From assembly GCA_963733955.1 (NCBI GenBank), contig CAVTEW010000002.1:5863-69862 (forward strand): 64,000 bases of DNA. Direction: 5' to 3'. This DNA is from an uncultured Acidobacteriota bacterium. Lineage in GTDB: Bacteria; Acidobacteriota; Thermoanaerobaculia; UBA5066; Gp7-AA6. Below, in pieces: positions 30,445 to 64,000 of the stretch. The position numbers were made by a program, and so were the translations under genes. Under the pieces are notes generated by a model. That model was not told the origin of the DNA, did not search any database, and worked only from the letters and a program-made list of their open reading frames with translations. The stretch's first letter is position 1. Every line of letters starts with the position of its first letter.

Positions 30445-30516
30445 GGGCGCGGCGGAGGAGGCCCATGCGCGCCGGGTCGCGGATGATTCGAACGGATCAT
30501 GCGCCGGGCGGCCTCT

Positions 30517-31188: not shown

Positions 31189-31222
31189 CGAGGGAGTGTA
31201 AGTCGGGGCGCGGCGTTCCAAA

Positions 31223-31238
31223 TGATCCACTTGGATCA
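31223..31238. promoter_or_regulatory. Palindromic box TGATCCACTTGGATCA
   Basis: Perfect 6+6 inverted repeat 68-83 nt upstream of the archease start. Confidence 0.55.
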
Positions 31239-31305
31239 GGGGGCCTTCGGCGCGATCGGAGATAGGTTGTTCCGGAGGCCGGGGAACCCGGAAAGGACGC
31301 GAGCG

Positions 31306-31731: not shown

Positions 31732-31736
31732 AGAGA

Positions 31737-31763
31737 GCGACGAGTGGCAAGTGACGCGTGAGA
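31737..31763. repeat. Period-7 GTGA repeat (GCGACGA GTGGCAA GTGACGC GTGAGAG) after the archease stop
   Basis: GTGG/GTGA recur at 31744, 31751 and 31758, exactly 7 nt apart. The repeat starts 6 nt after the TAG stop. Confidence 0.45.
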
Positions 31764-31784
31764 GAGGGCTGCGACGGTGACAAT

Positions 31785-33212
31785 ATGAACATTGTGTGGC
31801 GGGAAGTCGAGCCGAACGTCTGGGAGCTTCCGGCGACGGGGGCGATGCGGGTCACCGGCCGCCTCTACGCCAGCGCGGAGCTCGTCGACGCCCTGGACGA
31901 CAAGGTCCGCGAGCAGGTGTCCAACGTCGCGGCGCTGCCCGGCATCGTCGGCGCGTCCTTCGCCATGCCCGACACCCACTGGGGATACGGCTTCCCGATC
32001 GGCGGCGTGGCCGCCTTCGATCCCGATCGGGGCGGCGTCGTTTCCGCCGGCGGCGTGGGCTTCGACATCTCCTGCGGCGTGCGGACCTTCACCACCGGGA
32101 TCCAGGCCGCCGACCTCGGAGAGCGGCTGGAGACGGTCGCGCATGATCTCTACCGCACGGTGCCGGCCGGCGTCGGGTCGGGCGGCGCGGTCAAGCTGAC
32201 CATTTCGCAGCTCGACGAGGTGCTTTCCGGCGGCGCGGTCTGGGCGGTGGAGCGGGGATGGGGAGAGCCCGAGGATCTCGCGCGCATCGAGGAGCACGGC
32301 CGCGCGGAAGGCGCGGACCCCTCGAAGGTGAGCCGGCGGGCCAAGGAGCGGCAGCTGGACGCGGTGGGAAGCCTGGGCTCGGGGAACCACTATCTGGAGC
32401 TGCAGGCGGTGGAGAGGATCTTCGACGCCGAGGCCGCCGCGGCCTTCCGCCTCGCGCAGGGAGATCTCCTGGTCAGCATCCATTGCGGATCGCGGGGCCT
32501 GGGGCATCAGATCGGAACGGAATTCCTGCAGCGCTTCGTGCCGGTCGCGCCGCGGTACGGGATCGCCCTGCCCGACCGGGAGCTGGCATGCGCGCCGATC
32601 CGCTCGCCCGAGGGCGAGGACTACCTGGGCGCGATGCGCGCGGCCATCAACTGCGCGCTGGCGAACCGGCAGGTCATTGGCGCCCTGGTCCGAAGGGTCT
32701 TCGCCCGGCACGTTCCTCGGGCAGAGCTGCGGCTCCTCTACGACGTCTCCCACAACACCTGCAAGGCCGAACGGCACGAGGTGGACGGGCGCGAACGCCT
32801 CCTCTTCGTCCACCGCAAGGGAGCCACCCGCGCCTTCGGGCCCGGCCATCCCGAGCTGCCGCAGGACTATCGCGCGATCGGCCAGCCGGTCCTGGTCGGC
32901 GGCACGATGGGGACCGCCTCCTACATCCTGGCCGGCACGCGCGAGTCCGCTTCGCGCGCGTTCGCGTCGTCCTGCCACGGGGCCGGTCGAACCATGAGCC
33001 GCACGAAGGCCAAGGCTCGCTGGCAGGGACCGGCGCTTCTGCGCGAGCTCGCGCAGCAGGGGATCCTCATCAAGGCGCACACCGCCAAGGGCGCCGCCGA
33101 AGAGGCCCCCGGCGCCTACAAGGACGTGGACGAGGTGGCGCGCGTGGCGGAATCGACCGGTTTGTCGCGGCGCGTGGCCCGGGTCCGGCCCGTCGCCTGC
33201 GTCAAGGGCTGA
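31785..33212 (+). CDS. rtcB: RNA 3'-phosphate ligase RtcB
   Basis: MPDTHWGYGFPIGGV, GGVGFDISCGV, GSGNHYLE, HCGSRGLGH and CHGAGR motifs. Confidence 0.93.
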   Translation: MNIVWREVEPNVWELPATGAMRVTGRLYASAELVDALDDKVREQVSNVAALPGIVGASFAMPDTHWGYGFPIGGVAAFDPDRGGVVSAGGVGFDISCGVRTFTTGIQAADLGERLETVAHDLYRTVPAGVGSGGAVKLTISQLDEVLSGGAVWAVERGWGEPEDLARIEEHGRAEGADPSKVSRRAKERQLDAVGSLGSGNHYLELQAVERIFDAEAAAAFRLAQGDLLVSIHCGSRGLGHQIGTEFLQRFVPVAPRYGIALPDRELACAPIRSPEGEDYLGAMRAAINCALANRQVIGALVRRVFARHVPRAELRLLYDVSHNTCKAERHEVDGRERLLFVHRKGATRAFGPGHPELPQDYRAIGQPVLVGGTMGTASYILAGTRESASRAFASSCHGAGRTMSRTKAKARWQGPALLRELAQQGILIKAHTAKGAAEEAPGAYKDVDEVARVAESTGLSRRVARVRPVACVKG

Positions 33213-33225
33213 GGCATTTGCATCA
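33210..33225. promoter_or_regulatory. Palindromic box TGAGGCATTTGCATCA (one core mismatch)
   Basis: Overlaps the rtcB stop codon and lies 87-102 nt upstream of the pfkB start. Confidence 0.4.
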
Positions 33226-33311
33226 GGCATCCGGGCGCGCCCCCGGGTTTCATGGAGCTGCGGACGGCCGGAAAACCGACGCCGACCGCGGAGAGGCCCC
33301 GAAGAAGCCCG

Positions 33312-34250
33312 ATGTCCTACGTTGTGACGCTCACGATGAATCCGGCGATCGACGAGAGCTCCGAGGTGGATCACGTCGTTGCCGAGCGCAAGCTCCGCTG
33401 CATCCAACCGCGATATGAGCCCGGAGGAGGCGGAATCAACGTCTCGCGCGCGCTTGCGCGGCTGGGCGAGGAGTCCCTGGCCATCTATCCCGCAGGGGGC
33501 CTGGCCGCGGATCTGCTCCGCGGGCTGTTGACGCGGGAGGGACTCTCCCTCCTTCCCCTCCCGATTGCCGGGCAGACTCGGATCAATCTCAACGTGTTCG
33601 AGAGGACCTCGGGCCATCAATACCGTTTTGTCTTTCCCGGTCCGACCCTGTCCGAGTCCGAATGGAGCCCGTGTCTGCAAACGCTCCGGGACATGGATCC
33701 GCCTCCGCGGTACGTGGTCGGGAGCGGCAGTCTGCCGCCCGGAGTCCCGGAAGACTTCTGGGCTCGCGTAGCCGCCTACTGCCGGAGGTCCGGAGCGCGG
33801 CTGGTTCTGGACGCGTCCGGCGAGCCGCTGCGGGCCGCTCTGGCCGAGGGCATCTATCTCCTCAAGCCGAGTCTCAGGGAATTCAGCGAGCTGGTCGGGA
33901 CTGCGCTCTCCGACGAGCTGCGGCTGCGAGAGCAAGCCAGAGATTTCGTGCGTCGAACCGACTGCCAGTCTCTGGTGGTCTCGCTGGGCGCGGCCGGAGC
34001 GCTCTGGGCGACCTCTTCGGACGAAGGCAAGGTGTCTTCTCCCGCCGTGCTGGCGGCGGGCAGCGTGGGCGCCGGCGACAGCCTGCTGGCCGGCGTTCTG
34101 TTCTTTCTCGTCCGCGGCCATCCCCTGGGAGAGGCCGTGCGTTTCGGAGTCGCGGTCGCTTCGGCGGCGGTCCTGAACCCGGGGACGGAGCTCTTCCGGG
34201 CCGAAGACGCCTGGAGGCTCTACGAGCAGCTGAGCGAGGTCTACGCGTAG
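33312..34250 (+). CDS. pfkB: PfkB-family sugar/phosphosugar kinase (1-phosphofructokinase / PFK-2 type)
   Basis: VVTLTMNPAIDES N-terminus, LKPSLREFSEL, and C-terminal GAGDSLLAGV. Confidence 0.85.
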   Translation: MSYVVTLTMNPAIDESSEVDHVVAERKLRCIQPRYEPGGGGINVSRALARLGEESLAIYPAGGLAADLLRGLLTREGLSLLPLPIAGQTRINLNVFERTSGHQYRFVFPGPTLSESEWSPCLQTLRDMDPPPRYVVGSGSLPPGVPEDFWARVAAYCRRSGARLVLDASGEPLRAALAEGIYLLKPSLREFSELVGTALSDELRLREQARDFVRRTDCQSLVVSLGAAGALWATSSDEGKVSSPAVLAAGSVGAGDSLLAGVLFFLVRGHPLGEAVRFGVAVASAAVLNPGTELFRAEDAWRLYEQLSEVYA

Positions 34251-34305
34251 CCACATCGCGCACGTGGATCGAAGCCGACGAGGATCTGTCCCAAAGGAGG
34301 CGCGC

Positions 34306-34710
34306 ATGAACATCCCGCTCGACATCGCCATCCGGGGAATCCGTCCGTCCGAGGCCGTCGAGGCGAAGGTGCGGCGCAGGGCGTCGGGTCTGGAGAGGTA
34401 CTCGAAACGAATCTCGCGATGTGAGGTCTGGATCGAGGCGGATCGGGCCCATCACCGCAAGGGTCCGGTCTACGGCGCGCGCATCCGGCTGACCGTTCCG
34501 GAAGAGGAGATCGTCGTGGATCTGCAGCCCGAGGAGGAGGACGTCTTCGCGGCGATCCGGCTGGCCTTCGACGCCGCCCGGCGGCGGCTCCAGGACTACG
34601 AGCGGCGCTGGCCCGGGCGCCTCCGGGGACGCCCGCAATCGCGCCGCCGCCCGAGGCCCGCGGCGAATTCGGCCGGGTCGGCCTCCGGGGCGGGGGACGC
34701 CGGCGCGTAA
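34306..34710 (+). CDS. hpf: Ribosome hibernation factor (HPF/RaiA family) with basic C-terminal tail
   Basis: MNIPLDIAIRGIRPSEAVEAKVRRRASGLERYSKRISRCEVWIE.. shows the sigma54-modulation/HPF fold pattern. SD AAAGGAGG. Confidence 0.75.
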   Translation: MNIPLDIAIRGIRPSEAVEAKVRRRASGLERYSKRISRCEVWIEADRAHHRKGPVYGARIRLTVPEEEIVVDLQPEEEDVFAAIRLAFDAARRRLQDYERRWPGRLRGRPQSRRRPRPAANSAGSASGAGDAGA

Positions 34711-48595: not shown

Positions 48596-49396
48596 TCAGA
48601 CCGGCCCGGGATCGCCCAAGCGGCTCGAAGCCGCCGCGCGCCCGTCGAGACGGCCGAGAAGCCGCAGGAGGCCGTCGAGAATCGTCAACGGGTGGGGAGG
48701 GCAGCCCGGTATGGACAGATCGACAGGGATGTCCGCGGGGACGCCGTCGCGCGAGGACTGCGCCCCGGCGAACGGGCCGCCGGTCAAAGCGCACGCGCCC
48801 ACCGCGATCACGATCTTCGGCGCGGGAACCGCCGCGTAGGTCTCGCGCAGCGCGAGCTCCATGTTGGTGGTCACCGGGCCGGTCACGACGATCCCGTCGG
48901 CGTGCCGTGGAGAGGCCACGAACTGGATTCCAAAACGCCCGAGATCGAAGACCACGTTGCCCGTCGCGGTGAGCTCGGCTTCGCAGCCGCTGCAGCCGCC
49001 GGCGGAGACTTGACGCAACTTGAGCGAACGGCCGAAGAGCGCGCGCATGCCCCGGTCGAGCGCCGCCATCCGCGGCGCCTCGGCGCCCGAGACGATGAGG
49101 CCCGCTCGCGACCGCGCGGCCAGGCGATGGTCCTGCGTGTAGACGATTGCGCCCTCGGGGCACGACTCCTCGCAAATCGGGCAGAACAGGCATGCCCCCA
49201 GATCGACGCGCAAGGGCTCGGTCCCGATCGCCTGGGTCGGGCAAGCCTCGGCGCAGGCGCGGCACCCGTCCCGGCACTTGGAGGCGTCGACGATCGGGCG
49301 GCCTCGAAATCGCGACGGGAGCCGGACGCCCTCCGGAGGAAAGGCCATCGTCCGATGCCCCTGGCGCAGCCGGGCCCTCCACAGCTCGAAGATCAC
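48596..49396 (-). CDS. Ehr/Hyc-type small subunit: N-terminal 2x[4Fe-4S] ferredoxin (HycF-like) fused to a NuoB/HycG-like domain
   Basis: CRDGCRACAEACP and CLFCPICEESCP, then NuoB-like Cys (GGCSGCEAEL, VGACALTGGPF, IPGCPPHP). GTGA overlap with the large-subunit stop. Confidence 0.85.
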   Translation of the reverse strand: MIFELWRARLRQGHRTMAFPPEGVRLPSRFRGRPIVDASKCRDGCRACAEACPTQAIGTEPLRVDLGACLFCPICEESCPEGAIVYTQDHRLAARSRAGLIVSGAEAPRMAALDRGMRALFGRSLKLRQVSAGGCSGCEAELTATGNVVFDLGRFGIQFVASPRHADGIVVTGPVTTNMELALRETYAAVPAPKIVIAVGACALTGGPFAGAQSSRDGVPADIPVDLSIPGCPPHPLTILDGLLRLLGRLDGRAAASSRLGDPGPV

Positions 49397-50979
49397 AGAT
49401 CGTGTCCCGCGTAGGAGAGATTGAAGCTCTTGTTGCAGAGCGGAAAGTCGGAGATCTGGCCGCCCCGCAGGGCCATCGCCAGGCCGAACCAGTTGTGAAA
49501 GGACGGGTCGACGACTTGATAGCCCACGAGCCGTCCATCCGAGGATGTGGCGGCCACGTGCGCGATCTCGCCGCGCCAGCCCTCGACGATCGCGACGGCG
49601 AGACTGTCGGGGGAGAGACGGTCAACGGAGCGATCGGGCCCGACAGAGAGCGTTTCCGGCGGCAGCTCGTGGATCTGCTCTCGGAGGAAGGTCAGCGACC
49701 GCTGCGTCTCGAGCCAGCGGACGAGGGCACGCGCCATGACGTCTCCGGACTCGACGCGGGCGACCGGAATATGGGCGAACCGGTAGATGCCGAACGGGTG
49801 ATCGCGGCGCGCGTCCCGATCGCAGCCGCTGGCCCGCGAGACCGGACCGACCAGGCCGAGCGCTTGCGCGGTCTCCTGAGTGACGACGCCAGTGTGCTCG
49901 AAGCGCGAGCCGACCGACGGGGAGTCGAAGGTCGCCTGCGCCGTGTCCTTCAAATCCCTCTCGGCCGCGGCCAGACGGGGGAGAAAATCTCTTCGCTGCT
50001 CGGCAGACAGTCCGAACCGCACGCCTCCCGGCCTGAGGAGGCCTCTGCCGAAGCGGTTTCCGGAAAGGTCCAGAAGGAGGTTCAGGAACTCGCCCCGGAG
50101 GCGCCCGAACCAGGACGCGCCCGGCAGAAAGCCGATGTCGTTGCAGAGCGAACCCAGGTCTCCGGCGTGGTTGGAGAGGCGTTCGAGCTCCAGCGCGATC
50201 CCGCGCACGGCGTGGGCGTAGAGCGGTGGCTCGAGGCCGGCCAGCGATTCCACCGCCATGCAGTAGGCGAGGGCGTGGCCCACGGCGGTGTCTCCGGCGA
50301 TCGATTCCGCGACCGCCAGTCGCCGCGCGGGAGAAGATCGGAGAAGGAGCTCCTGCGCGCCGCGATGCTGGTAACCGAGCTGGATCTCGAGGTGGTGGAC
50401 GATCTCGCCCTGGCACTGAAACCGGAAGTGGCCGGGCTCGATGATGCCCGCGTGCACGGGCCCGACCGCGACCTCGTGGATCCCCGATCCTTCCACGCGA
50501 AAGAATGGATGGGGCTCGGCGCTCTTTGCGCCGTCGGTCCGGGTCTCAAGGTCCGCATGACGGCGCAAGGGCTTCAACCAGGGATGCCCGTCGGGGTGGA
50601 TCCCGTGATCCTCGGCGATCTCGCGCTCGAATGCCTGCGCCTGGGGGATCTCGGTCGAGAGGGCCGGATAGCTCCGGCTCTTGGGGACGGGCGTCTTCAG
50701 CAGGCCGAGGGTTCCTCGGGCGTCGTCCGCCAGCACCGCGAGGATTTCGTGCCTTTGCTCCGAATCTCGCTTCTCCGCCGGAAGGATGCACAGGGCAACG
50801 AGTCGACCACCCCGCGAGCAGATGTCGACGCAAGATCTCCGAAAGGAGCCAAGGGGAAACTCCGGAACGTCCACTCGCCGAATGGCCGAGCCGCTCCTGG
50901 TCCAGAGCGGCGAAACAATCGTGGGCGCCATCGCTCCCGGCGAGGCTCCTTTCTCGTTGGGCGTCTCTGCCACGGTCAT
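49393..50979 (-). CDS. NuoC+NuoD / HycE-like large subunit lacking NiFe-binding cysteines (Ehr-type)
   Basis: Clear homology (GPVHAGIIEPGHFRF, HLEIQLGYQHRG). AESIAGDTAVGHALAY replaces RxCGxCxxxH, and the C-terminus ISDFPLCNKSFNLSYAGHDL replaces DPCxxCxxR. SD GGGAGG and an ATGA overlap upstream. Confidence 0.85.
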   Translation of the reverse strand: MTVAETPNEKGASPGAMAPTIVSPLWTRSGSAIRRVDVPEFPLGSFRRSCVDICSRGGRLVALCILPAEKRDSEQRHEILAVLADDARGTLGLLKTPVPKSRSYPALSTEIPQAQAFEREIAEDHGIHPDGHPWLKPLRRHADLETRTDGAKSAEPHPFFRVEGSGIHEVAVGPVHAGIIEPGHFRFQCQGEIVHHLEIQLGYQHRGAQELLLRSSPARRLAVAESIAGDTAVGHALAYCMAVESLAGLEPPLYAHAVRGIALELERLSNHAGDLGSLCNDIGFLPGASWFGRLRGEFLNLLLDLSGNRFGRGLLRPGGVRFGLSAEQRRDFLPRLAAAERDLKDTAQATFDSPSVGSRFEHTGVVTQETAQALGLVGPVSRASGCDRDARRDHPFGIYRFAHIPVARVESGDVMARALVRWLETQRSLTFLREQIHELPPETLSVGPDRSVDRLSPDSLAVAIVEGWRGEIAHVAATSSDGRLVGYQVVDPSFHNWFGLAMALRGGQISDFPLCNKSFNLSYAGHDL

Positions 50980-52418
50980 CCTCCCAGCATGCCGGCGGCC
51001 CGGCGCAAGGCGTCCGCCAGGATTGGAGGAAGATAGATTCCCACCGCGAGCGCTCCGGCCGCGAGAGCGAGCGGCGGCAAGATCGAAAGCCGCGGCTCGC
51101 GAGACCGCGGCGCGCCTTCGTCGGGCGCTCCCTGGAGCATCGGGAGAAGAGTCCCGGCCATGCCCAGAAAGGCCACCGTCAAGAAAGCGACGAAGAGAAC
51201 GCCGATCCAGGCGTGGGGCCCTCTCAACGCCTCCTGAAAGATCAGGAACTCGCTCCAGAATGGTCCGAACGGCGGCAGGCCACCGATCGCGAGGAAGAGC
51301 GCCGCCATCAGGGCGCCGGTCGTTGGAATCCTTGCGAGCACTCCACGCGCCTCGCGAGCGGTCGTCGTCCGGAAGACTCGAAGGACGTTGCCCGCCAGGA
51401 GGAAGAGACCCGCCTTGCAAAGCGAGTGGTTCACCGAATGAAAGATCGCGCCGTACGCCGCGGTGCCCCCGAGCCCGACGCCGGCGGCCATGATTCCCAT
51501 GTTCTCGATGCTGGAATAGGCGAAGAGACGCTTGTAGTCGCTCTGGCCCACCAGGAAAGCGCACGCGACACCCATCGACACGAAGCCGAGGACAACGAGC
51601 AACGTTCGCGCGAACGCCGCGTCACCGGAAGCCAGGCAAACCTGGAAGAAACGCAGGATCGCCAGGAAGGCGCAGTTCAAGAGTGCTCCCGAGAGAAGCG
51701 CCGAGACGGGCGACGGAGCCTGACTGTGCGTGTCCGGGAGCCAGGTGTGGAGAGGCGCGAGGCCCATCTTGGTTCCGTATCCCACCAACGCGAGAATAAA
51801 GGCCGCCTTGAGCCATGGCCGCGCCATCCCGGGGGCTGCGGCTTCAAGCGTCCTGAGCATGAGACCGGCTTTCCCGCCGGAGACCGCCGACGCCGCGACC
51901 CCAAGGCAAAAAGTTCCGAGTAGCGCCAGGGCAATTCCCACCGAGCAGAGAAGCAGGTACTTCCAGGCCGCCTCGAGAGCTCCCCGCCGGCGATAGAAAT
52001 AGACGAGCGGCGCGCTGGCGAGCGTCGTTCCTTCGACGGCCGCCCACATCAGGGCAAGGTTCTGGGTGACCGACACCAGGCTCATGGCCGCCAGAAACGC
52101 AAGCAGGCAAGGCACGAATCGGTGCGGCGCCGCCTGCGTGTCGTGAGTGCCCTGAAGAATGTAGGGGACCGTGTAGACCGCGACGAGCAGGAAGAGAGCG
52201 CTGGTGATCGACAGGAAAATCAAGCCGATCACATCGAGCTGCAGGAGCGTTCCGAAGGTCTTCGACGGAGCGCCGGCCCAAAGAACCGCTGTCGCCGCGA
52301 AATGAAGCAGCGCTCCTCCCAGGAGGATGCCGAGGCCGACGCGAAGATCTTTGACCGCGAGCGCCAGGAGCCCCAGAGCGGCCGGCGCAAGAACGAGGAA
52401 AGCCAGGAGCCACGTCAT
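50976..52418 (-). CDS. Antiporter-like membrane subunit (NuoN/HyfF/MrpD family)
   Basis: GYGTKMGLAPLHTWLPDTHSQAPSPVSALLSG and LFAYSSIENMG are typical of proton-conducting subunits. Confidence 0.88.
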   Translation of the reverse strand: MTWLLAFLVLAPAALGLLALAVKDLRVGLGILLGGALLHFAATAVLWAGAPSKTFGTLLQLDVIGLIFLSITSALFLLVAVYTVPYILQGTHDTQAAPHRFVPCLLAFLAAMSLVSVTQNLALMWAAVEGTTLASAPLVYFYRRRGALEAAWKYLLLCSVGIALALLGTFCLGVAASAVSGGKAGLMLRTLEAAAPGMARPWLKAAFILALVGYGTKMGLAPLHTWLPDTHSQAPSPVSALLSGALLNCAFLAILRFFQVCLASGDAAFARTLLVVLGFVSMGVACAFLVGQSDYKRLFAYSSIENMGIMAAGVGLGGTAAYGAIFHSVNHSLCKAGLFLLAGNVLRVFRTTTAREARGVLARIPTTGALMAALFLAIGGLPPFGPFWSEFLIFQEALRGPHAWIGVLFVAFLTVAFLGMAGTLLPMLQGAPDEGAPRSREPRLSILPPLALAAGALAVGIYLPPILADALRRAAGMLGG

Positions 52419-52423
52419 CCCCG

Positions 52424-53077
52424 TCAGCCCCTGAGAGTCGAGAGCAGTTCGGTGTCGATATGCTCGAACTCGCGGCTGATGTGATTGATCGCGATCCCCA
52501 TCACGAAGACGCCCACGAGCAAGTCCAGAAGGATCCCCAGCTCGACCGCAAACGGGACCTGCTCGACCAGTGTCTGGCCGAATATGAAGATGCCGTTTTC
52601 CAGCATCAGGTAACCCACGACCTGAGTGACCGCCTTCCGACGGCTGACGAGGACCAGGAATCCCACGAGCACCGTCGCGAAGGCCATGGGAACGAGCAGG
52701 GGCGTCGGCGCAGGCCTGGGCAGAACGAGAACCGTGCCGAGCCAGAACGAGAACCCCACCAGCGCTGCCGCGATGAGGAGGGAGAAGTGCAGGCTGATGA
52801 AAGGCTCGGCCTCGCGGCGCACATTGGCCTCGCGAATCGCACGGGAAAGCAAGAGCGGAATGACGATGGCCTTGACGGCCAGCGCTCCCAGGCTCATCAA
52901 CGCGACGGGTACCAGATGCCGGTCGAGCGACGGGCCCCAGAGCGCGAGAGGCAAGAGCGAGAGCGCCACGCCCTGCAGCGCCGAGGCCCGCACACAGCTC
53001 GTCAGGCGGCTGGTGGCGACGATGGAGACGGAAAGCGTGGTCACGACCAGGAGCAGAAGATCCGCGTAACCGCTCAT
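52424..53077 (-). CDS. HyfE-like small membrane subunit
   Basis: 217-aa polytopic protein with GYLMLENGIFIFG, characteristic of HyfE/EhrC-type subunits. ATGA overlap with the upstream gene. Confidence 0.75.
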   Translation of the reverse strand: MSGYADLLLLVVTTLSVSIVATSRLTSCVRASALQGVALSLLPLALWGPSLDRHLVPVALMSLGALAVKAIVIPLLLSRAIREANVRREAEPFISLHFSLLIAAALVGFSFWLGTVLVLPRPAPTPLLVPMAFATVLVGFLVLVSRRKAVTQVVGYLMLENGIFIFGQTLVEQVPFAVELGILLDLLVGVFVMGIAINHISREFEHIDTELLSTLRG

Positions 53078-53997
53078 GGCGCGCCCCGGTAGAAGAGAGC
53101 GGCCAGGCCGATGGCGGCGAGCACGGCCGCCCCGACCAGGAACTGGGGCACTCGAGGAAGCCGCAGCCGAGCCACCACCGACTCGACCACGCCCACGAGC
53201 ACCGCCAGTGCGATCTCGCCGACGCAGAGCAAGGCGGCGCCCTGCCATCCGCCCCCAGCAGGGATCGGCAAGAGAATATGGGTGAGCAGCGCTCCGATCA
53301 CGAAGAGCTTGACGGCGCTGCCGTAAGACACGAACGCGAGATCCGGGCCCCCGTGATCGAGCACCATGACCTCGTGGACCATCGTCAGCTCGAGGTGGGT
53401 GTTGGGGTCGTCCACGGGGATGCGGGAATTTTCCGCAAGGAGGACGGCGAACAGCGAGAGCGCCGCGGCCAGATAGGTCGGATGCTCGAATCCCCATGTC
53501 GCCCACGGCAGCTGCCGGAACGCATCCCCGAAGGTCGCGCTCCGGGCGGGGACGCAGAGGATCGCGACCGAGAGAAAGAGAGCCGGCTCCGCCAGGGCCG
53601 CAAAAGCGGCTTCGCGACTGGCTCCCATTCCTTCGAAGCTCGAACCGGTGTCGAGGGCGGCGGCCATGGTGAAGAACCGACCGAGGCCGAGCAGATAGGC
53701 AAAGAGGACGACGTCTCCGGGAAAGCCGAGAGGCGAAGCGTTGGCCGCTAGAGGCAGCACGAGACCGGCGCACAGCACGGCGGCGAGTGAGACGATCGGT
53801 CCGGCACGAAAAATCCAGGTCGCGGTGCGGCTGTAGACGGCGCCTTTCCGAAGCAATTTCCAGAGATCGCGATAGGGCTGGAGAAGGGGCGGGCCAAGCC
53901 TTCCCGCGAACCAGGCCTTCGTCTTGTTGATCATGCCCGGGAGCAGCGGCGGCACGAGCAGAAGAAGTGCCAGGTGAATCCCGAGGTCCAACATCAT
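53074..53997 (-). CDS. NuoH/HycD-like membrane subunit
   Basis: INKTKAWFAGRLGPPLLQPYRDLWKLLRK.. and ENSRIPVDDPNTHLELTMVHE, typical of HycD/HyfC. Confidence 0.85.
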   Translation of the reverse strand: MMLDLGIHLALLLLVPPLLPGMINKTKAWFAGRLGPPLLQPYRDLWKLLRKGAVYSRTATWIFRAGPIVSLAAVLCAGLVLPLAANASPLGFPGDVVLFAYLLGLGRFFTMAAALDTGSSFEGMGASREAAFAALAEPALFLSVAILCVPARSATFGDAFRQLPWATWGFEHPTYLAAALSLFAVLLAENSRIPVDDPNTHLELTMVHEVMVLDHGGPDLAFVSYGSAVKLFVIGALLTHILLPIPAGGGWQGAALLCVGEIALAVLVGVVESVVARLRLPRVPQFLVGAAVLAAIGLAALFYRGAP

Positions 53998-53998
53998 G

Positions 53999-55987
53999 TC
54001 ACTGTCCCATTCCCGTGAGCTGCCAGACCAGGAGCGCGACGAGGGTCACCGCGATGTAGACGAGATAGAGCTGGAGGCGGCCCTGCTGGATCGCATGGAG
54101 CCGGGAAAGCGCCCGAACCACGCGCCGGACCGCGGGCAAGAGAATCCGCTCGCCGGCCATGTCGCCCAGGTGTTCTTCATAGTGGGCCGCGCCTGGAAAA
54201 TATCCATCGGGGCCCTGTTGGTCGACGCGCGTGGAAATCACCGGCGTGAACAGCGCGAGAATCGGCTGTGCGAAGGAGGCTGCAGTGTACTGCATTCGAG
54301 AGGTTCCCGCCGCGTAGCCGCAGCCCCAGGTCGCCCCCCGCGACACCGAACGGCCGCGAAGGAGGGCCAGGCGGACCAGTCCGAGCAGCAGAACGAGAAC
54401 GAGGAGCACGACGCTCACTCGCGTGATTGCGGAAAGCGCTGCGGCGTTGGGAAACGCGTCCGCCTTCTTTCCGAGAAACGCAGCCGTCGGCGCCACGACC
54501 CGCATCGCTCCCGCCGGCCAGAGTCCAATCGCGAAGCACAGGAGCGCCCCCAAAAGCATCGGCGCTCGCATCAGGGGCCCGGCTTCGTGGGCCTTCGAAG
54601 CGGCCTCCGTGCGGGGCTGACCCAGGAAAACGACGCCGAACGCCTTCACGAAGCACGTCGCGGCCAACCCCCCGACGAGCGCCAGCGCCGGAACCACGGC
54701 GAGCGCCCAAACAGCCCATGTGGTTGGGAAGAAGGCGCCGCCCCGGAACGCGCCGATGTAGATCAGCCACTCACTGACGAAGCCATTGAGAGGCGGCAGA
54801 CCGCAGATGGCGACGGAACCGACGAGAAACGTCGCGGCTGTCGTTGGCATGCGGCGGGAGAGGCCTCCGAGTTTGTCGATGTCCCGCGTACCGGTGCCGT
54901 GAGCGACGCTGCCGGCTCCCTGAAAAAGAAGACCCTTGAAGAGCCCGTGATTGAGAACATGGAGCAGAGCTCCCGCGAAGCCCAGGAAGGCGACGGAAGG
55001 GTTTCCCTGGCTCTGCCCCAGAAGACCAAGGCCAATTCCCAGCGCAATGATTCCGATGTTCTCGACGCTGTGGTAGGCCAGGAGACGCTTGAGGTCGTGC
55101 TGAGCCAGGGCATGGAGCACGCCGGCCACCCCGGAAACGGCTCCGATGGCGATCAGGAGAGCGCCCCACCACACCGGCGGCGGCCCGAGGAACGAAAGAA
55201 TTCGGAGCAGCCCGTAGATCCCCATCTTGATCATCACGCCCGACATCACGGCGGAGACGTGACTCGGCGCGGCCGGGTGCGCGTCGGGGAGCCAGATGTG
55301 CATCGGCCAGAAGCCGGCCTTGGTCCCGAAACCGACGACGGCGAGCAGGAACGCAACACCCGCGAGCGCCGGAGTCGTGGCGCCGGCCGCCGCCAGAGCG
55401 TCGAAATCGTAGGTGCCCGACTCCTTGCCCAGAACGGCGATCAGGACGAACAGGAAGACGACGCCGAGCTGGGAGGCGATCAGGTACGTCATCCCGGCCC
55501 GGCGAACCTCCTCGCGCTCGCTCTCGAAAGTCACAAGGAAGAACGAAGCCAGCGTCATGATCTCCCAGGCCAGGAGAAAGAGAATGCCGTCCCGAGCGAT
55601 CGCCACCACGGCCATGGCGGCGACGAGCAGGTTGAAGAAGAAAACGGCCGGCGCCAGGCGCCGCTTCCCGAGGTCGGCACGCAGGTATCCTCCCCCGTAA
55701 ATCGCCGAGAGGCCCGACACCAGGAAGACGCAGACCAGGAAGAACGAGGAGAGCGGGTCGAGCGCGACGTGGAGCTCTCCCACCGGCAGCGGCCAGGCCG
55801 CGCGCAGCCCGCTCCGCGAGCCTGAGATCAGCGCGGAAAAGGCCGCCGAAAGACCCGTGGCGCAAGCGAGCCCGGCTCCGACCGTGCCGATCCACAGCGC
55901 GGCTCGGTTGGAACGGCCCGACAGGGCCGCGGCGAGGGCGCTGGCGCACAGGAGAGCGATCGAAAGCAGGACGATCTCGAGCTGCAC
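53999..55987 (-). CDS. NuoL/HycC/HyfB-like antiporter-type membrane subunit
   Basis: GFGTKAGFWPMHIWLPDAHPAAPSHVSAVMSGVMIKMG and LLAYHSVENIG. GTG 55987 is chosen as the start because the longer ORF overlaps the upstream regulator. Confidence 0.85.
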   Translation of the reverse strand: MQLEIVLLSIALLCASALAAALSGRSNRAALWIGTVGAGLACATGLSAAFSALISGSRSGLRAAWPLPVGELHVALDPLSSFFLVCVFLVSGLSAIYGGGYLRADLGKRRLAPAVFFFNLLVAAMAVVAIARDGILFLLAWEIMTLASFFLVTFESEREEVRRAGMTYLIASQLGVVFLFVLIAVLGKESGTYDFDALAAAGATTPALAGVAFLLAVVGFGTKAGFWPMHIWLPDAHPAAPSHVSAVMSGVMIKMGIYGLLRILSFLGPPPVWWGALLIAIGAVSGVAGVLHALAQHDLKRLLAYHSVENIGIIALGIGLGLLGQSQGNPSVAFLGFAGALLHVLNHGLFKGLLFQGAGSVAHGTGTRDIDKLGGLSRRMPTTAATFLVGSVAICGLPPLNGFVSEWLIYIGAFRGGAFFPTTWAVWALAVVPALALVGGLAATCFVKAFGVVFLGQPRTEAASKAHEAGPLMRAPMLLGALLCFAIGLWPAGAMRVVAPTAAFLGKKADAFPNAAALSAITRVSVVLLVLVLLLGLVRLALLRGRSVSRGATWGCGYAAGTSRMQYTAASFAQPILALFTPVISTRVDQQGPDGYFPGAAHYEEHLGDMAGERILLPAVRRVVRALSRLHAIQQGRLQLYLVYIAVTLVALLVWQLTGMGQ

Positions 55988-55992
55988 CGGAC

Positions 55993-56685
55993 TTACTCGG
56001 AGCGCGCCGCGGCGGCGCGGGCCTCTTCTTCGATGGCGCGGAGACGGTCCAGGATCTCTTCCCGCGGCGCGGTTCTCTCCAGGAGGCTCTGGAGCGCGTC
56101 GTCGTGCAAGGCGAAGGCGAGGCGGGCGAACATCTGGAGGTGGACCCGCACCGACGGCGACAGCAGCACGAACAGGACGCGCACGGGCCGGCCGTCCAGG
56201 GCATGAAAATCGATCGGCCGGCGGAGGAAACAAACCAGGACCACAGGCTCATCGGTGTGAACCACGACGGGATCGCGCGGGTGCGGAATCGCGATGCCGT
56301 TGCCGATGCCGGTCGACGCGAGCGCCTCCCGCGCGGCCAGGAGCTGGTGGAGGAGCTGCCGGTCGACGCGCGGCGGGATCCCCGGCAACCGGGAAACCGC
56401 CTGCAGAACGTCCTCGCGCCGCTCGCCCGGGATGTCGTAGAAGATGCCGCCCCGGCCGATCGCCGCGGAAAGGCTCGAGACCTCTTCGGACGCGCCGTTG
56501 CCGGCGAGCAGCTCGGGCGAGACCCGATGCTCGTGCAGCGCGGCCCACTCCTGCAGCTCGACGCGGTGGAACATGTACTGGTCATGAATCCGGTGAGCCG
56601 GCAGGGAGCCGCTGCGGATCCAGCGGTAGATGGTCTGCTCCGAAACGTTGAGCAGGCGAGCGACGTCTCGAACTCTCAGTTCCAT
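55993..56685 (-). CDS. HTH (excisionase/MerR-like) + PTS EIIA(Ntr/Fru)-type domain regulator
   Basis: MELRVRDVARLLNVSEQTIYRWIRSGSLPAHRI, and an EIIA-2 core with the TGIGNGIAIPH histidine loop. Confidence 0.8.
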   Translation of the reverse strand: MELRVRDVARLLNVSEQTIYRWIRSGSLPAHRIHDQYMFHRVELQEWAALHEHRVSPELLAGNGASEEVSSLSAAIGRGGIFYDIPGERREDVLQAVSRLPGIPPRVDRQLLHQLLAAREALASTGIGNGIAIPHPRDPVVVHTDEPVVLVCFLRRPIDFHALDGRPVRVLFVLLSPSVRVHLQMFARLAFALHDDALQSLLERTAPREEILDRLRAIEEEARAAAARSE

Positions 56686-56734: not shown

Positions 56735-57475
56735 CTAGCGCTTGGCCGGCTTGGTCCCGGCGGCTGTCCGGGGCCCATCGTCCAAGGCGACCTTGCGCTC
56801 CGTCGCGGCAACGGCCCGAAAGATCGACTGGGCGTCGGACGCGTCGAGGACGGCCCGGACGGCCTCCGCGCGCGCGAACATGTGCGCGAGCTTGTTGAGC
56901 CACGGAAGGTAGAGCTCCTCGAACTTGAGGCCGAGCGCGAAGAAGAGATGGGTCGGCCCGCCGTCCAGAGCGTCGAAGTCCACTCCCGGCCGCGAGCGGC
57001 CGAGGAGCATGAACGGACGGGAGACCTGCTCGGGATTTCGGCGCAGGGTGTGGAGAAAGGCGACGCCGTTGCCCATGGCGCTGGGCATCACATTCTCGCG
57101 CTCGATCAACGCCCCGACGAACCAGGTCTTGTCCCGCACGAGGCCTAATCGGGCGGCCAGACCCGCGAGCTCCTCGATGACCGTGTTCTTCGTCGCGGCT
57201 TCCAGATCGGGCACGATGTGGTCCGGCTGAAAGCAGGTGGCCAGCGCGAGCATGCGCCGTGGGGAGCCTTCCAGGCGCGGCGCGTCCACGTACCGCGGCA
57301 TCACGCCGAGCATCTGGTCGTCGAGCCACGTGTCGATCATGGCCTTCCGAAAGCGCCACTGGTTCCCCACCTTGACTCCGGGGAGGGCGCCGTCCGAGAC
57401 GAGCTTGGCCACGGTCCGGTCGTTCACGCTCAGGTACTCCGCCAGCTGCTTGATCGTCATCAAACGATCTTCCAT
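56735..57475 (-). CDS. HTH (excisionase/MerR-like) + PTS EIIA-type domain regulator (paralogue)
   Basis: LMTIKQLAEYLSVNDRTVAKLVSDGALPGVKVGNQWRF, and EIIA-like SAMGNGVAFLH. SD GGAGAA lies 9 nt before the ATG. Confidence 0.8.
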   Translation of the reverse strand: MEDRLMTIKQLAEYLSVNDRTVAKLVSDGALPGVKVGNQWRFRKAMIDTWLDDQMLGVMPRYVDAPRLEGSPRRMLALATCFQPDHIVPDLEAATKNTVIEELAGLAARLGLVRDKTWFVGALIERENVMPSAMGNGVAFLHTLRRNPEQVSRPFMLLGRSRPGVDFDALDGGPTHLFFALGLKFEELYLPWLNKLAHMFARAEAVRAVLDASDAQSIFRAVAATERKVALDDGPRTAAGTKPAKR

Positions 57476-57528
57476 CGCGCTTTTCTCCGGTGTTTTGGGG
57501 ATCAGCCAGTCAGTTTTCCGGGCGCGCC

Positions 57529-57558
57529 ACTGTAGGGTAGAAATACGTCTGTTGTCAA
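57529..57558 (-). promoter_or_regulatory. Sigma70-like promoter TTGACA-N18-TACAGT
   Basis: Read on the minus strand in an AT-richer patch. The -10 lies about 55 nt upstream of the HTH-EIIA start codon. Confidence 0.4.
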
Positions 57559-57627
57559 CGAAAGGCGTTATTTGACTCAAAACAACCTCAAAATGCGCCG
57601 GACGCGGATCTTTCCAGCCCTGTTCTT

Positions 57628-61321: not shown

Positions 61322-61337
61322 TGATGTAATCACATCA
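61322..61337. promoter_or_regulatory. Palindromic box TGATGTAATCACATCA
   Basis: Perfect 6+6 inverted repeat in the divergent xfp / membrane-protein region, 48-63 nt from the xfp ATG. Confidence 0.6.
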
Positions 61338-61373: not shown

Positions 61374-61910
61374 ATGGTGTCGAGAGAGCGGTGGACCCCG
61401 GTCTCCATGAGCCTCATGGCTCGCGCGCTGGCCGGCTTCGGGCTGGCCGCGGCCGCGGCGGCGTCCTCCCCCCGGGCGCTGCCCATGATCCTGGGCGCCT
61501 ACGCCTTTGCCGACGCGCTCGTCCTGTTGCAGCTCTCTTCCGGGCTCCCGAGCCGCGCGCTGTTCGTGTCCGGCTTCGCGGGCCTGGCTCTGGCCGCGTT
61601 GTTGCTCCTTGCCCCTCCGGCCTCCGCCTTCGGCCTGAACGCGCTCGTGGGCGTGTGGGCCATGGCCATGGGGCTGCTCGGGCTCCTGGGCGCCGGCGCC
61701 TTCGGGGCCGTCCCCGTCGAGCGGTCCCTCTTCGCGTCGGGGAGCGTGGGGGGCATCGTGGTCGGAAGCTGGCTCGGAGTTTCTCCCCATGCGGCTGCGG
61801 CGACGCTCTCCGTTCTGATCGCCGCGCTCGGGCTCGCCGTCGGCGGTTCGTCGCTCGCCGTGGCCGTCCGGCGTCGATCTGATGCAGTCGCATCATGCGG
61901 TGGGGTCTGA
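61374..61910 (+). CDS. Hypothetical integral membrane protein (Gly/Ala-rich TM repeats, HdeD/DUF308-like)
   Basis: Only the last 178 codons of track ORF 58926..61910 are taken. They contain five or six hydrophobic segments. Confidence 0.55.
   Translation: MVSRERWTPVSMSLMARALAGFGLAAAAAASSPRALPMILGAYAFADALVLLQLSSGLPSRALFVSGFAGLALAALLLLAPPASAFGLNALVGVWAMAMGLLGLLGAGAFGAVPVERSLFASGSVGGIVVGSWLGVSPHAAAATLSVLIAALGLAVGGSSLAVAVRRRSDAVASCGGV
61881..61896. promoter_or_regulatory. Palindromic box TGATGCAGTCGCATCA
   Basis: Perfect 6+6 inverted repeat 80-95 nt upstream of the USP start at 61976 (inside the 3' end of the preceding ORF). Confidence 0.6.
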
Positions 61911-62461: not shown

Positions 62462-63136
62462 TTGAAGCCGGAGCAGACCTTGTTCCAGAATTCCGAAGCC
62501 CTGGACCGCATCTCCCGCAGCGGCGAGGCCGTGTTCGCGATCGACTCCGCGGATCGCATCGTTCTCTGGAACAAGCGGTGCGAGGAGCTGCTCGGCCGTC
62601 CGGCCAAGAGCGTCCTCGGCAAGCGCTGCTACGAGGTGATGGGCGGGCGCGACCCCAACGGCAACGTCTACTGTTATCGCAACTGCCCGGTCGCCTTCCA
62701 GTCGCGCGAGCGGCCCAAGGAGCCGGTCAAGCGCTTCGAGCTGTCCGTGGAGGGGCCCCGGGGAGGGCGCCGCTGGATCGAGGTCTCCATGTTCGCGATT
62801 CCGTCCTACCACCCCGCGCTGGCCACGGTGGTGCACGTGCTGCGCGAAGGGAAGGACAAAGAGACGCCGCTCGAGCACGCCCTGAGCCGCGAGGCCGAGG
62901 CCCGCGAGCCGCTCTGGCCAATGATGACCAACGACGGCAAGCCGGTCGACCTGACCAACCGCGAGAAGGAGATCCTGCGGTCGATGGCCGGGGGGCTCTC
63001 CACCGCCGCGATTTCCAGGCGGCTCTTCATCTCGCCGGTGACGGTCCGAAACCACATCCAGAACATCCTGCACAAGTTGAACGTCCACACCAAGCTCGCC
63101 GCCGTGGTCTTCGCCTACCAGCACGAGTTGATTTAG
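62462..63136 (+). CDS. PAS (4-Cys) + LuxR/GerE-type HTH one-component regulator
   Basis: PAS-like RIVLWNKRCEELLG.. with Cys spacing C-X15-C-X14-C-X3-C. C-terminal LTNREKEILRSMAGGLSTAAISRRLFISPVTVRNHIQNILHKL. The start is TTG 62462 or, better aligned with the paralogue, TTG 62480. Confidence 0.85.
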   Translation: MKPEQTLFQNSEALDRISRSGEAVFAIDSADRIVLWNKRCEELLGRPAKSVLGKRCYEVMGGRDPNGNVYCYRNCPVAFQSRERPKEPVKRFELSVEGPRGGRRWIEVSMFAIPSYHPALATVVHVLREGKDKETPLEHALSREAEAREPLWPMMTNDGKPVDLTNREKEILRSMAGGLSTAAISRRLFISPVTVRNHIQNILHKLNVHTKLAAVVFAYQHELI

Positions 63137-63276
63137 GCGGGACTCGGGATCGACGGAAGACTGAGGACTTCATCGGGCCGCGCCCGAATCTGTCTTTCCC
63201 CGAATCTCCGCCTGCAGGGCCACACGGAACTCATTCATCGCGAGCCCTTTAGCCTGGTGAAAACGCCTCATCGGCC

Positions 63277-63292
63277 TGATGTGGATTCATCA
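63277..63292. promoter_or_regulatory. Palindromic box TGATGTGGATTCATCA
   Basis: Exact core. First of two boxes upstream of the second PAS-LuxR gene. Confidence 0.55.
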
Positions 63293-63297
63293 GGAAT

Positions 63298-63313
63298 TGA
63301 TGCATTCGCATCA
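63298..63313. promoter_or_regulatory. Palindromic box TGATGCATTCGCATCA
   Basis: Perfect 6+6 inverted repeat. Its centre is 21 bp from the previous box, and it lies 47-62 nt upstream of ATG 63360. Confidence 0.6.
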
Positions 63314-63359
63314 TCACGGCGTTTCCGGGGCTGGGCAACGATAGGCCTCGGAGGACGCC

Positions 63360-64000
63360 ATGAGAGTTTTCGACGAGACGCTGGAACGGATCTCCCGCAG
63401 CGGCGAGGCGGTCTTCGCGATCGACGGAGCGGACCGGATCATCCTGTGGAACAAGGCCTGCGAAACGCTGGTCGGAAAGTCCGCCAAGAGCGTTCTCGGC
63501 AAGCCCTGTTACGACGCCATGTGCGGAAGGGATCCCAACGGCAACCTGTACTGCCATCGCAGCTGTCCGGTGGCCTACCAGGCCCGCGAAAAGACGGAAG
63601 ACCCCGTACACCGGTTCGAGCTCACGGTGAAGGCCGGAGACGGGAAGCTCCGCCAGTTCTCCACCTCCCTCTTCGCGATCCCGTCCTATCACCCGGCCCT
63701 GACGACGGTGGTGCACGTGCTGCGCCCGGTGACGGACGCCTCTCCGGCCGCCGCGCCGGCGATCGTTTCCGAGCCGCTCACGCCCCTGACCAACGGGGAC
63801 GGAGAAACGATCGCCCTGACGCCGCGCGAAAAGGAAGTCCTGCGCTGCCTGGCCCAGGGCCTGGCCACTCCGGCCATCTCGAAGAAGCTCTTCATCTCGG
63901 CGGTGACCGTGCGCAATCACATCCAGAACGTCCTGCAGAAGCTCGGCGTGCACTCCAAGCTCGAAGCGGTCGTGCTCGCGCACAAGCACCAGCTGATCTA
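63360..64000 (+). CDS. PAS (4-Cys) + LuxR/GerE-type HTH regulator, paralogue (stop codon cut by window end)
   Basis: My own translation is MRVFDETLERISRSGEAVFAIDGADRIILWNKACETLVG..CYDAMCGRDPNGNLYCHRSCPV..LTPREKEVLRCLAQGLATPAISKKLFISAVTVRNHIQNVLQKL..HKHQLI, followed by 'ta' at the window edge. SD GGAGGA. This ORF is not in the supplied ORF track. Confidence 0.85.
   Translation, partial: MRVFDETLERISRSGEAVFAIDGADRIILWNKACETLVGKSAKSVLGKPCYDAMCGRDPNGNLYCHRSCPVAYQAREKTEDPVHRFELTVKAGDGKLRQFSTSLFAIPSYHPALTTVVHVLRPVTDASPAAAPAIVSEPLTPLTNGDGETIALTPREKEVLRCLAQGLATPAISKKLFISAVTVRNHIQNVLQKLGVHSKLEAVVLAHKHQLI

Follow-up and report, generated by a model that had tools for sequence, protein, structure and literature searches.

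One-component transcription factors in which an N-terminal PAS domain is joined by a linker to a C-terminal LuxR/GerE helix-turn-helix (HTH), and which act without phosphorylation, include EL222, VqmA, PimM/PteF and the Bacteroides protein 3CLO. Proteins of the EL222/VqmA class bind palindromic operators as dimers, and the state of the cofactor or ligand of the PAS domain controls release and dimerization of the HTH. The order of PAS followed by LuxR is found in more than 6,000 SMART entries (FG214 preprint), and the term PAS-LuxR has been used in the literature for the Streptomyces PimM group. The same layout was detected in two tandem genes, termed gene 1 and gene 2, at the right-hand end of a 64,000-nucleotide stretch of DNA (the window) from an uncultured Acidobacteriota bacterium of the Thermoanaerobaculia. 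Our reading of the locus as a whole, to which we assign a probability of roughly one half, is that these genes encode a pair of O2- or redox-sensing regulators with a Cys-His centre in the PAS domain, and that this pair drives an autoregulated, dormancy-like regulon marked by a palindromic box.

Control of a transcription factor by an iron-sulfur (Fe-S) PAS domain has a precedent in OrpR of Desulfovibrio vulgaris, in which C52-X8-C61-X3-C65 and a nearby acidic residue of the PAS domain bind a redox-sensitive [4Fe-4S] cluster, gating a transcription factor that is active under anoxia. In the NreB proteins, the histidine kinase of Staphylococcus carnosus binds [4Fe-4S] through CX2CX11CX2C and that of Bacillus licheniformis binds [2Fe-2S] through CX2CX11C and an exogenous sulfur ligand; the PAS sequences of the two types are reported to be unrelated. 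Within the PAS-LuxR proteins, O2 is reported by thiol chemistry in VqmA, through a C48-C63 disulfide. At the level of the target genes, the DosR regulon comprises multiple universal stress proteins (USPs), Hrp1 (a CBS protein), the Acg nitroreductase, PfkB, the CtpF P-type ATPase and a hibernation-like factor, and the DosR operon begins with a USP gene and is autoregulated, with sites near position -43.

Both window proteins matched PAS (PF00989, above cut-off) followed by GerE (E = 4e-18 and 3e-20) in Pfam, and neither matched Response_reg, the receiver domain. PAS and GerE without a receiver were also present in the nine distant family members that were scanned. The linker from PAS to HTH was about 25 residues long and disordered (residues 126-146 in the gene 2 model). 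The best Foldseek matches of the full-length model were the PAS-LuxR proteins VqmA, EL222 and 3CLO (E = 3.6e-10 to 3e-7), and alignment to EL222 with hhalign extended over 190 columns in both domains with a probability of 92%. NarL and DosR matched only the GerE part of both proteins. Judged by domain content and predicted fold, genes 1 and 2 are paralogues and encode one-component transcription factors of a PAS-LuxR family that is so far uncharacterised. A first-pass annotation of this DNA had described a PAS domain fused to a GerE/LuxR HTH without a receiver, and this description held. The same annotation had presented the receiver-less build as distinctive; as the PAS-then-LuxR order is common and known from EL222, VqmA and PimM, the build is unremarkable by itself. 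A search of a plasmid collection found no homologue of the PAS domain.

The gene 1 and gene 2 products were identical at 131 of 213 positions (62%; BLASTP E = 2e-98). Both contained the shared strings of residues and the exact cysteine spacing, C-X15-C-X14-C-X3-C (residues 34, 50, 65 and 69), that the first-pass annotation had reported. Conservation of these residues was examined in three sets of relatives. A search of 5.8 billion proteins at E <= 1e-5 yielded 708 relatives, with identities of at least 59% for the best 120 cluster representatives. Among the best representatives, C34, C65 and C69 were present in 121 of 121 and C50 in 120 of 121, so that the absence of conservation in orthologues that the annotation had named as fatal to its proposal was not seen. 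H111, H119, D58, N62, Y64, Q74 and R76 were invariant among the same 121 sequences, while H66, which lies next to C65, was present in 107 of them and was variable beyond the clade. For the second set, gene 2 was compared by tblastn with 80 GTDB species loci, which had been retrieved by HTH patterns and hence independently of the cysteines. This comparison gave 97 homologues, with C50, C65, C69, H119, D58 and N62 in 97 of 97, C34 in 94 of 96 and H111 in 88 of 97.

The third set came from an exhaustive, PAS-only HMMER search of 1.84 billion representatives, which gave 360 clusters at E <= 1e-10. In 110 full-domain relatives (approximately 31 to 68% identity), C34 was replaced by Ala in 75 and retained as Cys in only 26, while C50, C65, C69 and H119 were essentially invariant. 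An alignment of 37 PAS sequences (31 to 66% identity, with a mean column identity of 45%) had only W30, C50, C65, C69 and H119 as invariant positions. Because C34 is usually Ala in distant relatives and the other four residues do not vary, the family signature in these alignments is Cys3-His (C50, C65, C69 and H119) and not the four-cysteine signature first described, which is limited to the clade of the window, where C34 and H111 supplement the family residues.

This close clade consisted of uncultured Thermoanaerobaculia and other Acidobacteriota only, the few source-named representatives among the best 120 being labelled Thermoanaerobaculia. More distant family members came from metagenome-assembled genomes (MAGs) labelled Acidobacteriota, Myxococcales and Nitrospirota. 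Single Thermoanaerobaculia genomes carried at least three paralogues (L051/L045, L083/L084/L078 and L049/L052), and the divergent paralogues (approximately 50 to 56% identity) kept both the Cys3-His residues and a VTVRNH helix in the HTH, with no box or USP gene nearby. The Cys3-His PAS module was mostly fused to GerE; it was also found at the C terminus of a BTAD (SARP-like) protein (P0167) and at the N terminus of an adenylate/guanylate cyclase (P0232), as expected for a portable sensor that is reused with other outputs.

In order to place these residues in the PAS fold, models were generated with AlphaFold2. A canonical PAS fold, a disordered linker and a four-helix GerE domain were predicted (Table 1), with a pLDDT of 79 for the full-length protein (below 50 in the linker) and a pLDDT of 84 and pTM of 0.79 for the PAS domain alone. 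Confidence in the PAS model was lowest at residues 61-70, the segment with C65 and C69, which would be expected if the model misses a cofactor. In a profile alignment with EL222, for which the sequence used was identical to PDB 3p7n residue for residue, C50 coincided with the photoactive residue of the LOV motif, the Cys of GRNCRFL, and C34 with the Phe of the LOV NxxF segment. H119 aligned four residues before the pocket Gln on I-beta and, because of this spacing, is predicted to be on the pocket side of that strand. C65 and C69 were located at the end of a hairpin and in the first turn of F-alpha, in a segment about 6 residues longer than in LOV domains. The conserved cysteines and histidine probably line the canonical cofactor pocket, the one occupied by flavin or heme in other PAS domains.

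Two known uses of PAS cysteines were considered and rejected. Binding of flavin in the LOV manner was discounted: the motif reads GKPCYDAM or GKRCYEVM rather than GXNCRFLQ, and the proteins lack a flavin signature, the R and Q of NCRFLQ being absent even though C50 aligns with the LOV Cys. Homology of C50-C65 with C48-C63 of VqmA, which are also separated by X14, appeared to be a coincidence. When the VqmA sequence (an exact match to PDB 6ugl_A) was used, hhalign aligned only the HTH, and relative to the S-box Gly, C48 of VqmA is 2 residues before and C50 of the window proteins 3 residues after. The Cys3-His site was unique to this PAS-LuxR family.

The cysteine layout is suggestive of OrpR much more than of NreB. 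Compared by published cysteine positions only, OrpR and the window proteins each have three conserved PAS cysteines at similar positions, the first near residue 50, with a terminal C-X3-C and a nearby acidic residue (D58 in the window proteins). The first spacing differs by six residues (X8 in OrpR and X14 here), no conserved His has been reported for OrpR, and the output of OrpR is that of an AAA+ sigma-54 activator, its HTH being of the Fis type and not GerE; Pfam detected no Sigma54_activat domain in the products of genes 1 and 2 or in the distant members scanned. NreB is similar in having a cytoplasmic PAS domain that binds Fe-S through three or four cysteines and reports O2 or sulfide, and its partner NreC is of the NarL/LuxR type. 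The output of NreB is, however, a two-component HisKA_3 kinase, whereas in the window proteins GerE is fused directly to the PAS domain and no kinase domain is present. The parallel with NreB drawn in the first-pass annotation is an analogy only, the cysteine motif and the output being different and no NreB-like match having been obtained in the profile or fold searches.

The nearest solved folds were cytoplasmic PAS domains with cofactors, namely LOV domains with FMN, NifL with FAD, and the heme proteins FixL, DosP and FG214, with TM scores of 0.58 to 0.72 and identities of no more than 25%. These matches raised the alternative that the PAS domain binds heme b through Cys and/or His, in the style of RcoM, FG214, FixL or DosP, and senses O2, CO, NO or redox state. 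FixL had the highest identity of any match (24%), and H119, the clade-invariant H111 or the frequent H66 could be axial ligands. FG214 of Fimbriimonas ginsengisoli provides a precedent for a heme PAS domain that gates a LuxR-type HTH, being a redox-regulated, one-component protein with a PAS-gated switch from monomer to dimer; it differs in having the HTH before the PAS domain, a bis-His heme b and no conserved cysteines. One or two axial ligands suffice for heme, in contrast to the three invariant cysteines and the histidine found here. In a PDB profile search with the PAS-only alignment, the matches, including those to heme PAS domains, covered only the generic N-terminal S-box (positions 2-46), and the cysteine-bearing half was without a match. 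As three invariant cysteines would be unnecessary for heme and H66, the residue nearest to the proximal-His region of FixL, is not conserved, heme was the least likely cofactor and this alternative is highly improbable.

Evidence for a regulon came from the 16-bp palindrome TGATGC-N4-GCATCA. With up to 2 mismatches, 21 matches were detected in the window as compared to 1.86 expected, and none of 100 shuffled sequences reached 21. At least 18 of these 21 boxes were intergenic or at the 5' ends of genes, and boxes would lie at approximately position -42 at no fewer than 15 promoters. The window encodes six USPs, five of them behind a box, and six CBS-pair proteins, three of them directly behind a box. 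Other genes behind boxes specified a GNAT/ADP-forming acyl-CoA synthetase, FeoB, DUF5335, an Acg-like nitroreductase, a radical-SAM enzyme (with DUF302), pyruvate:ferredoxin oxidoreductase (PFOR), a CBS protein paired with a P-type ATPase, and phosphoketolase with acetate kinase downstream of it. One box-linked operon encoded an archease fusion, RtcB, PfkB and a hibernation factor. Judged from these domains, the gene set looks to be of an anaerobic-metabolism or dormancy type and fits an O2 or redox signal of the kind first proposed. The earlier idea of a redox sensor is plausible and was strengthened, although its framing as a four-cysteine, NreB-like sensor was not sustained.

The content of the box regulon is, by analogy, strikingly like that of the DosR regulon of Mycobacterium tuberculosis. 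Both systems have a NarL/LuxR-type output domain and a regulator operon led by a USP gene, autoregulated in DosR and presumably so here. DosR, however, is a phosphorylated, receiver-bearing regulator served by the heme-GAF kinases DosS and DosT, whereas the window proteins combine sensor and HTH in one chain and would need no kinase. The 20-bp DosR box, TTSGGGACTWWAGTCCCSAA, is unrelated to TGATGC-N4-GCATCA. The FNR/CRP consensus TTGAT-N4-ATCAA was also rejected as an identity for the box, the register differing by 2 bp in each half-site; the window proteins that were scanned against Pfam also included none of the Crp type. The boxes mark an island of about 52 kb (9816-61910) with genes of a hypoxia or dormancy type. 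Several boxes share a right-flank extension, CATCATGCG.

The linkage between the box and the regulators was examined at the window locus and in other genomes. The 48-nt gap between the USP gene and gene 1 is free of terminator-like sites, whereas downstream of gene 1 there is a hairpin with a run of T, and the order of a USP gene followed by a PAS-LuxR gene was kept in the loci L001, L003 and L004. For these reasons the USP gene and gene 1 are probably co-transcribed, in agreement with the first-pass annotation, with the box at 61880 as the presumed operator of the operon. The hairpin is a probable end of the transcript and is a consensus match only, in a region holding 2 such sites as compared to 1.8 expected. 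Of the three box positions given previously, 63277 and 63298 were confirmed and 61881 was corrected to 61880.

Boxes were similarly enriched in L003, a 2.9-Mb contig with an 87% orthologue (7 boxes, 0.7 expected), and in L004, a 4.1-Mb contig (10 boxes, 0.6 expected). Both contigs had a double box 60-85 nt before the gene 2 orthologue and a single box before the USP gene that precedes the gene 1 orthologue. Across the GTDB loci, boxes with no more than 1 mismatch clustered at -50 to -100 from the start of the regulator and, for regulators behind a USP gene, at -540 to -750. Of the 93 homologues that could be assessed, 17 had a double box of their own, 6 had a single box and 40 had a USP gene directly upstream. 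A box preceded the USP gene in 26 of these 40 cases; the other 14 were without a box at this threshold, 2 of them being too near a contig end for the promoter to be read. A direct link to a box was thus detected for 49 of 93 homologues. In 10 aligned gene 2 promoters, the only conserved islands were the two boxes and ACGAT(A/G) or AAGATT about 24 nt downstream; the distance between distal and proximal boxes was 18-21 bp from start to start, and the columns of the proximal box were invariant. The putative recognition helix, VTVRNH-Q, was invariant in the clade, and the 10-bp distance between half-site centres suits a dimer of the GerE type. Autoregulation, together with control of the regulon by these proteins, is the most economical reading of these patterns, and the double boxes at gene 2 and single boxes at the USP-gene 1 operon, seen across dozens of Thermoanaerobaculia genomes, support the autoregulation suggested earlier.

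Binding of the box by the gene 1 and gene 2 proteins is inferred, and the window is 64 kb of a genome of several Mb; the box could instead be read by another regulator, either elsewhere in the genome or the HTH_17-EIIA protein encoded at 56735-57580, the PAS-LuxR genes then being mere members of the regulon with other DNA targets. Other regulators in the island include, besides HTH_17-EIIA, a DtxR-FeoA fusion and a hybrid kinase, and many paralogues have the same VTVRNH helix without a nearby box. Against this, the double box is the tightest and best-conserved arrangement and is positioned precisely before gene 2 orthologues in at least 17 species, with a further box before the USP-gene 1 operon and a recognition helix that does not vary in the clade. 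The HTH_17-EIIA gene has no box in front of it, and a FNR/CRP-type reader is disfavoured by the register shift described above. A 16-bp inverted repeat with 10-bp half-site spacing fits a GerE dimer, precedents being the NarL 7-2-7 arrangement and the 16-nt PimM operator. A different reader of the box is therefore quite unlikely.

The position of the boxes also bears on the direction of control. Hexamers resembling a -10 element (AAGATT, GATAAT, TAGGCT, TAACGT, GTTAAT and ACGATA) were present 19-28 nt past many boxes, for example those at 14263, 25144, 48495, 61880 and 63298; GTTAAT was found 23-28 nt past the 61880 box. In front of gene 2, ACGATA is likely to be the -10 hexamer, which would centre the proximal box at approximately -42 to -45. 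If the element some 24 nt downstream is indeed the -10 hexamer, this box would be at the position of a class II activator. We favour activation overall, with moderate confidence. Start codons were often only 6-9 nt past the -10-like hexamer, and this short distance suggests leaderless mRNAs for several genes of the regulon.

The interpretation that we favour can be set out as a mechanism. C50 at the start of E-alpha, C65 and C69 in the hairpin and first turn of F-alpha, and H119 on I-beta would form a metal or redox centre in the PAS domain, to which C34 and H111 would be added in the Thermoanaerobaculia clade. A flexible linker would couple the PAS domain to the GerE/LuxR HTH, and a dimer of the latter would read the 16-bp palindrome. 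The signal would most likely be O2 or cellular redox potential, and the sensor an oxidant-labile Fe-S cluster with Cys3-His ligands (Cys4 in this clade). Under anoxia, the cluster-bearing form would free or dimerize the HTH, as in EL222, FG214 and VqmA, turning the regulon on, and the boxes at the USP-gene 1 operon and gene 2 would allow the regulators to amplify their own synthesis. Functionally, this arrangement would be DosS/T-DosR compressed into one polypeptide.

The separate parts of this mechanism carry different weights. An Fe-S cluster as the identity of the centre has a little less than an even chance; Zn, as a structural site or a redox switch, is a doubtful but real contender, and the remainder, after the small share of heme, falls to another centre or none. 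Sensor regulators with Fe-S clusters, among them IscR, NsrR, RsrR and Fnr of Bacillus subtilis, typically have a fourth ligand other than cysteine (His, Asp or Glu). The broader proposal, in which Fe-S PAS-LuxR proteins would be widespread one-polypeptide sensors of O2 or redox and the tandem pair would be the master switch of an independently evolved, DosR-like regulon in Thermoanaerobaculia, is tentative and falls well short of an even chance.

A number of findings weighed against this interpretation. The PAS domain contains no CxxC or other canonical Fe-S motif, and Cys3-His is a classic set of ligands for structural or redox-active Zn. The placement of the site in the pocket follows from alignment and PAS topology. 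The generic sensory-box (PAS) domain model was the sole NCBIfam entry above its curated cut-off; no specific family matched, the matches of the GerE region to named regulators all being below their cut-offs, and in the literature that was searched no paper was found on an Fe-S or Cys-rich PAS-LuxR regulator or on any studied member of the family. Four boxes (13181, 30484, 35315 and 36950) overlap or abut candidate ATG start codons, a position that would suit repression over activation; repressive sites, mis-called starts and overlapping half-sites are all possible explanations. Neither a box nor a USP gene was near 32 of the 93 homologues, mostly distant paralogues (approximately 54% identity), and the neighbourhoods of the family members in Myxococcales and Nitrospirota MAGs contained no USP or dormancy genes. 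As these distant members in other phyla sit in unrelated neighbourhoods, the link to dormancy may be specific to this clade.

The first of these points bear on an alternative in which the regulators and the box are the same but the Cys3-His site binds Zn(II). In a structural variant, Zn would stabilize the hairpin inserted before F-alpha, and the PAS domain would sense something else or nothing; in a variant resembling the RsrA/ZAS redox switches, oxidants would expel Zn from the thiolates, a disulfide would form and the availability of the HTH would change. Four invariant ligand-type residues, three Cys and one His, are the commonest Zn set, and RsrA has a Cys3His Zn site. In the model secondary structure, C65 and C69 at the end of the hairpin and the N terminus of the helix have a knuckle-like geometry, and a cytoplasmic Zn-binding PAS domain exists in WalK, which was a weak match in the PDB profile search. 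The thiol response of VqmA to O2 is a precedent among PAS-LuxR proteins, although the cysteines of VqmA differ in position and the PAS domains could not be aligned. A purely structural Zn would leave the pocket location and the reuse of the module with other outputs unexplained, and the fourth invariant Cys and second invariant His of the clade exceed the needs of Zn. Furthermore, the genes for PFOR, radical SAM, FeoB and hydrogenase-linked proteins suggest induction under anoxia, for which the usual solution is an O2-labile Fe-S sensor. The Zn alternative is on these grounds unlikely, if only mildly so.

The component principles of the favoured Fe-S interpretation are all known already: a PAS-LuxR switch, a PAS domain with Fe-S or another metal, and a dormancy regulon under a LuxR-type regulator that controls its own synthesis. 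If true, a Cys3-His centre in the PAS pocket would be a new cofactor class beside flavin (EL222), 3,5-dimethylpyrazin-2-ol (VqmA) and heme (FG214), and the system would be an evolutionarily independent, one-component counterpart of mycobacterial DosS/T-DosR. Should the site hold no more than a structural zinc, what is left would be an ordinary PAS-LuxR autoregulator, albeit one not yet characterised. Soils and sediments are rich in Thermoanaerobaculia and other Acidobacteriota, uncultured bacteria that meet fluctuating O2, and the locus represents a testable circuit for low-oxygen persistence, with two small soluble regulators, a sharply defined 16-bp presumed operator and at least 15 operons. 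A protein of about 215 aa with a defined operator and no partner could also serve as a compact O2 or redox part for synthetic biology.

Table 1. Positions of the regulator genes, flanking elements and predicted PAS structure (nucleotides of the window unless residues are stated)
Feature	Position	Strand	Remarks
Box TGATGTAATCACATCA	61322..61337	.	Between divergent phosphoketolase gene (-) and 184-aa membrane-protein gene (+)
Box TGATGCAGTCGCATCA, 16-bp palindrome, 0 mismatches	61880..61895	.	81 nt before USP start
USP gene, 151 aa	61976..62431	+	Pfam Usp, E = 1e-23; first gene of presumed USP-gene 1 operon
Gene 1, PAS-GerE/LuxR one-component regulator, 218 aa	62480..63136	+	PAS ~13-125, HTH 158-218
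Gene 1 codons	C34 62579, C50 62627, C65 62672, C69 62684, H111 62810, H119 62834		
Terminator-like hairpin TCGGGCCGCGCCCGA with T-rich tail	63173..63197	+	37 nt past gene 1 stop
Distal gene 2 box TGATGTGGATTCATCA, 2 mismatches	63277..63292	.	
Proximal gene 2 box TGATGCATTCGCATCA, 0 mismatches	63298..63313	.	Ends 46 nt before ATG
ACGATA element	63337..63342	+	~24 nt past proximal box; ACGATG or AAGATT in orthologues
Gene 2 ribosome-binding site GGAGGA	63350-63355	+	
Gene 2, PAS-GerE/LuxR one-component regulator, 213 aa	63360..64000	+	PAS ~13-125, HTH 153-213
Gene 2 codons	C34 63459, C50 63507, C55 63522, C65 63552, C69 63564, H111 63690, H119 63714		
A-beta	residues 17-21		AlphaFold2 model
B-beta	residues 26-30		AlphaFold2 model
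C-alpha	residues 32-38		AlphaFold2 model
D-alpha	residues 42-45		AlphaFold2 model
E-alpha	residues 50-54		AlphaFold2 model
Short hairpin	residues 57-64		AlphaFold2 model
F-alpha	residues 70-77		AlphaFold2 model
G-beta	residues 86-91		AlphaFold2 model
H-beta	residues 97-107		AlphaFold2 model
I-beta	residues 116-123		AlphaFold2 model

Both open reading frames (ORFs) were confirmed on the + strand. The longest ORF for gene 1 is 62462..63136, with a TTG start at 62462. A second TTG at 62480 is the likelier start, being preceded by GGAG 6 nt upstream and giving the 218-aa length of the orthologues, which have the N terminus M-x-Q-x-SEALDRIS; it also brings both PAS domains into the same residue numbering. 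Gene 2 starts with ATG at 63360, and its stop codon is just past the end of the window. An identical 213-aa product (P0001, 100% identity) is encoded on two other contigs, indicating that gene 2 is truncated by its stop codon only. The gene 2 product has two extra cysteines, one in its PAS domain (C55) and one in its HTH domain (C163).

Several features of the surrounding island were also observed. The archease-RtcB genes form an apparent operon at 30499-34710 (+), encoding a 410-aa protein with a C-terminal archease domain, an RtcB RNA ligase, a PfkB kinase and an S30AE hibernation factor, with boxes at 30484 and 33210; RNA repair would join the dormancy regulon through this operon. At 48596-56233 (-), a protein resembling the small subunit of NiFe hydrogenases (Oxidored_q6 with a 4Fe-4S domain) and an NADHdh (NuoH-like) subunit are encoded in a cluster that looks like an energy-converting hydrogenase of the Ech/Mbh type beside PFOR. 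In L003, a gene for an Mrp-type antiporter subunit (Proton_antipo_M) was present on the far side of the acetate kinase gene. At 18950-22151 (+), a KaiC-like double-domain ATPase gene overlaps by 20 nt with the hybrid histidine kinase gene downstream of it (HisKA, HATPase and REC), and the two may constitute a KaiC-based timing or stress module within the island.

The DtxR-FeoA protein, encoded at 22172-25109 (-), consists of the C-terminal domain of a DtxR-type iron repressor fused to FeoA, directly downstream of FeoB, and feoB is separated from the divergent DUF5335 gene by the stretch that holds the box at 25144. The gene at 56735-57580 (-) encodes a fusion of HTH_17 (excisionase-type) and PTS EIIA-2, a putative second regulator in the island, and is beside the acetate kinase gene both here and in L003 (1835-2560). 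The 184-aa membrane-protein gene (+) adjoins the USP operon on its upstream side, and the box at 61322 has a counterpart in L003 at 6450.

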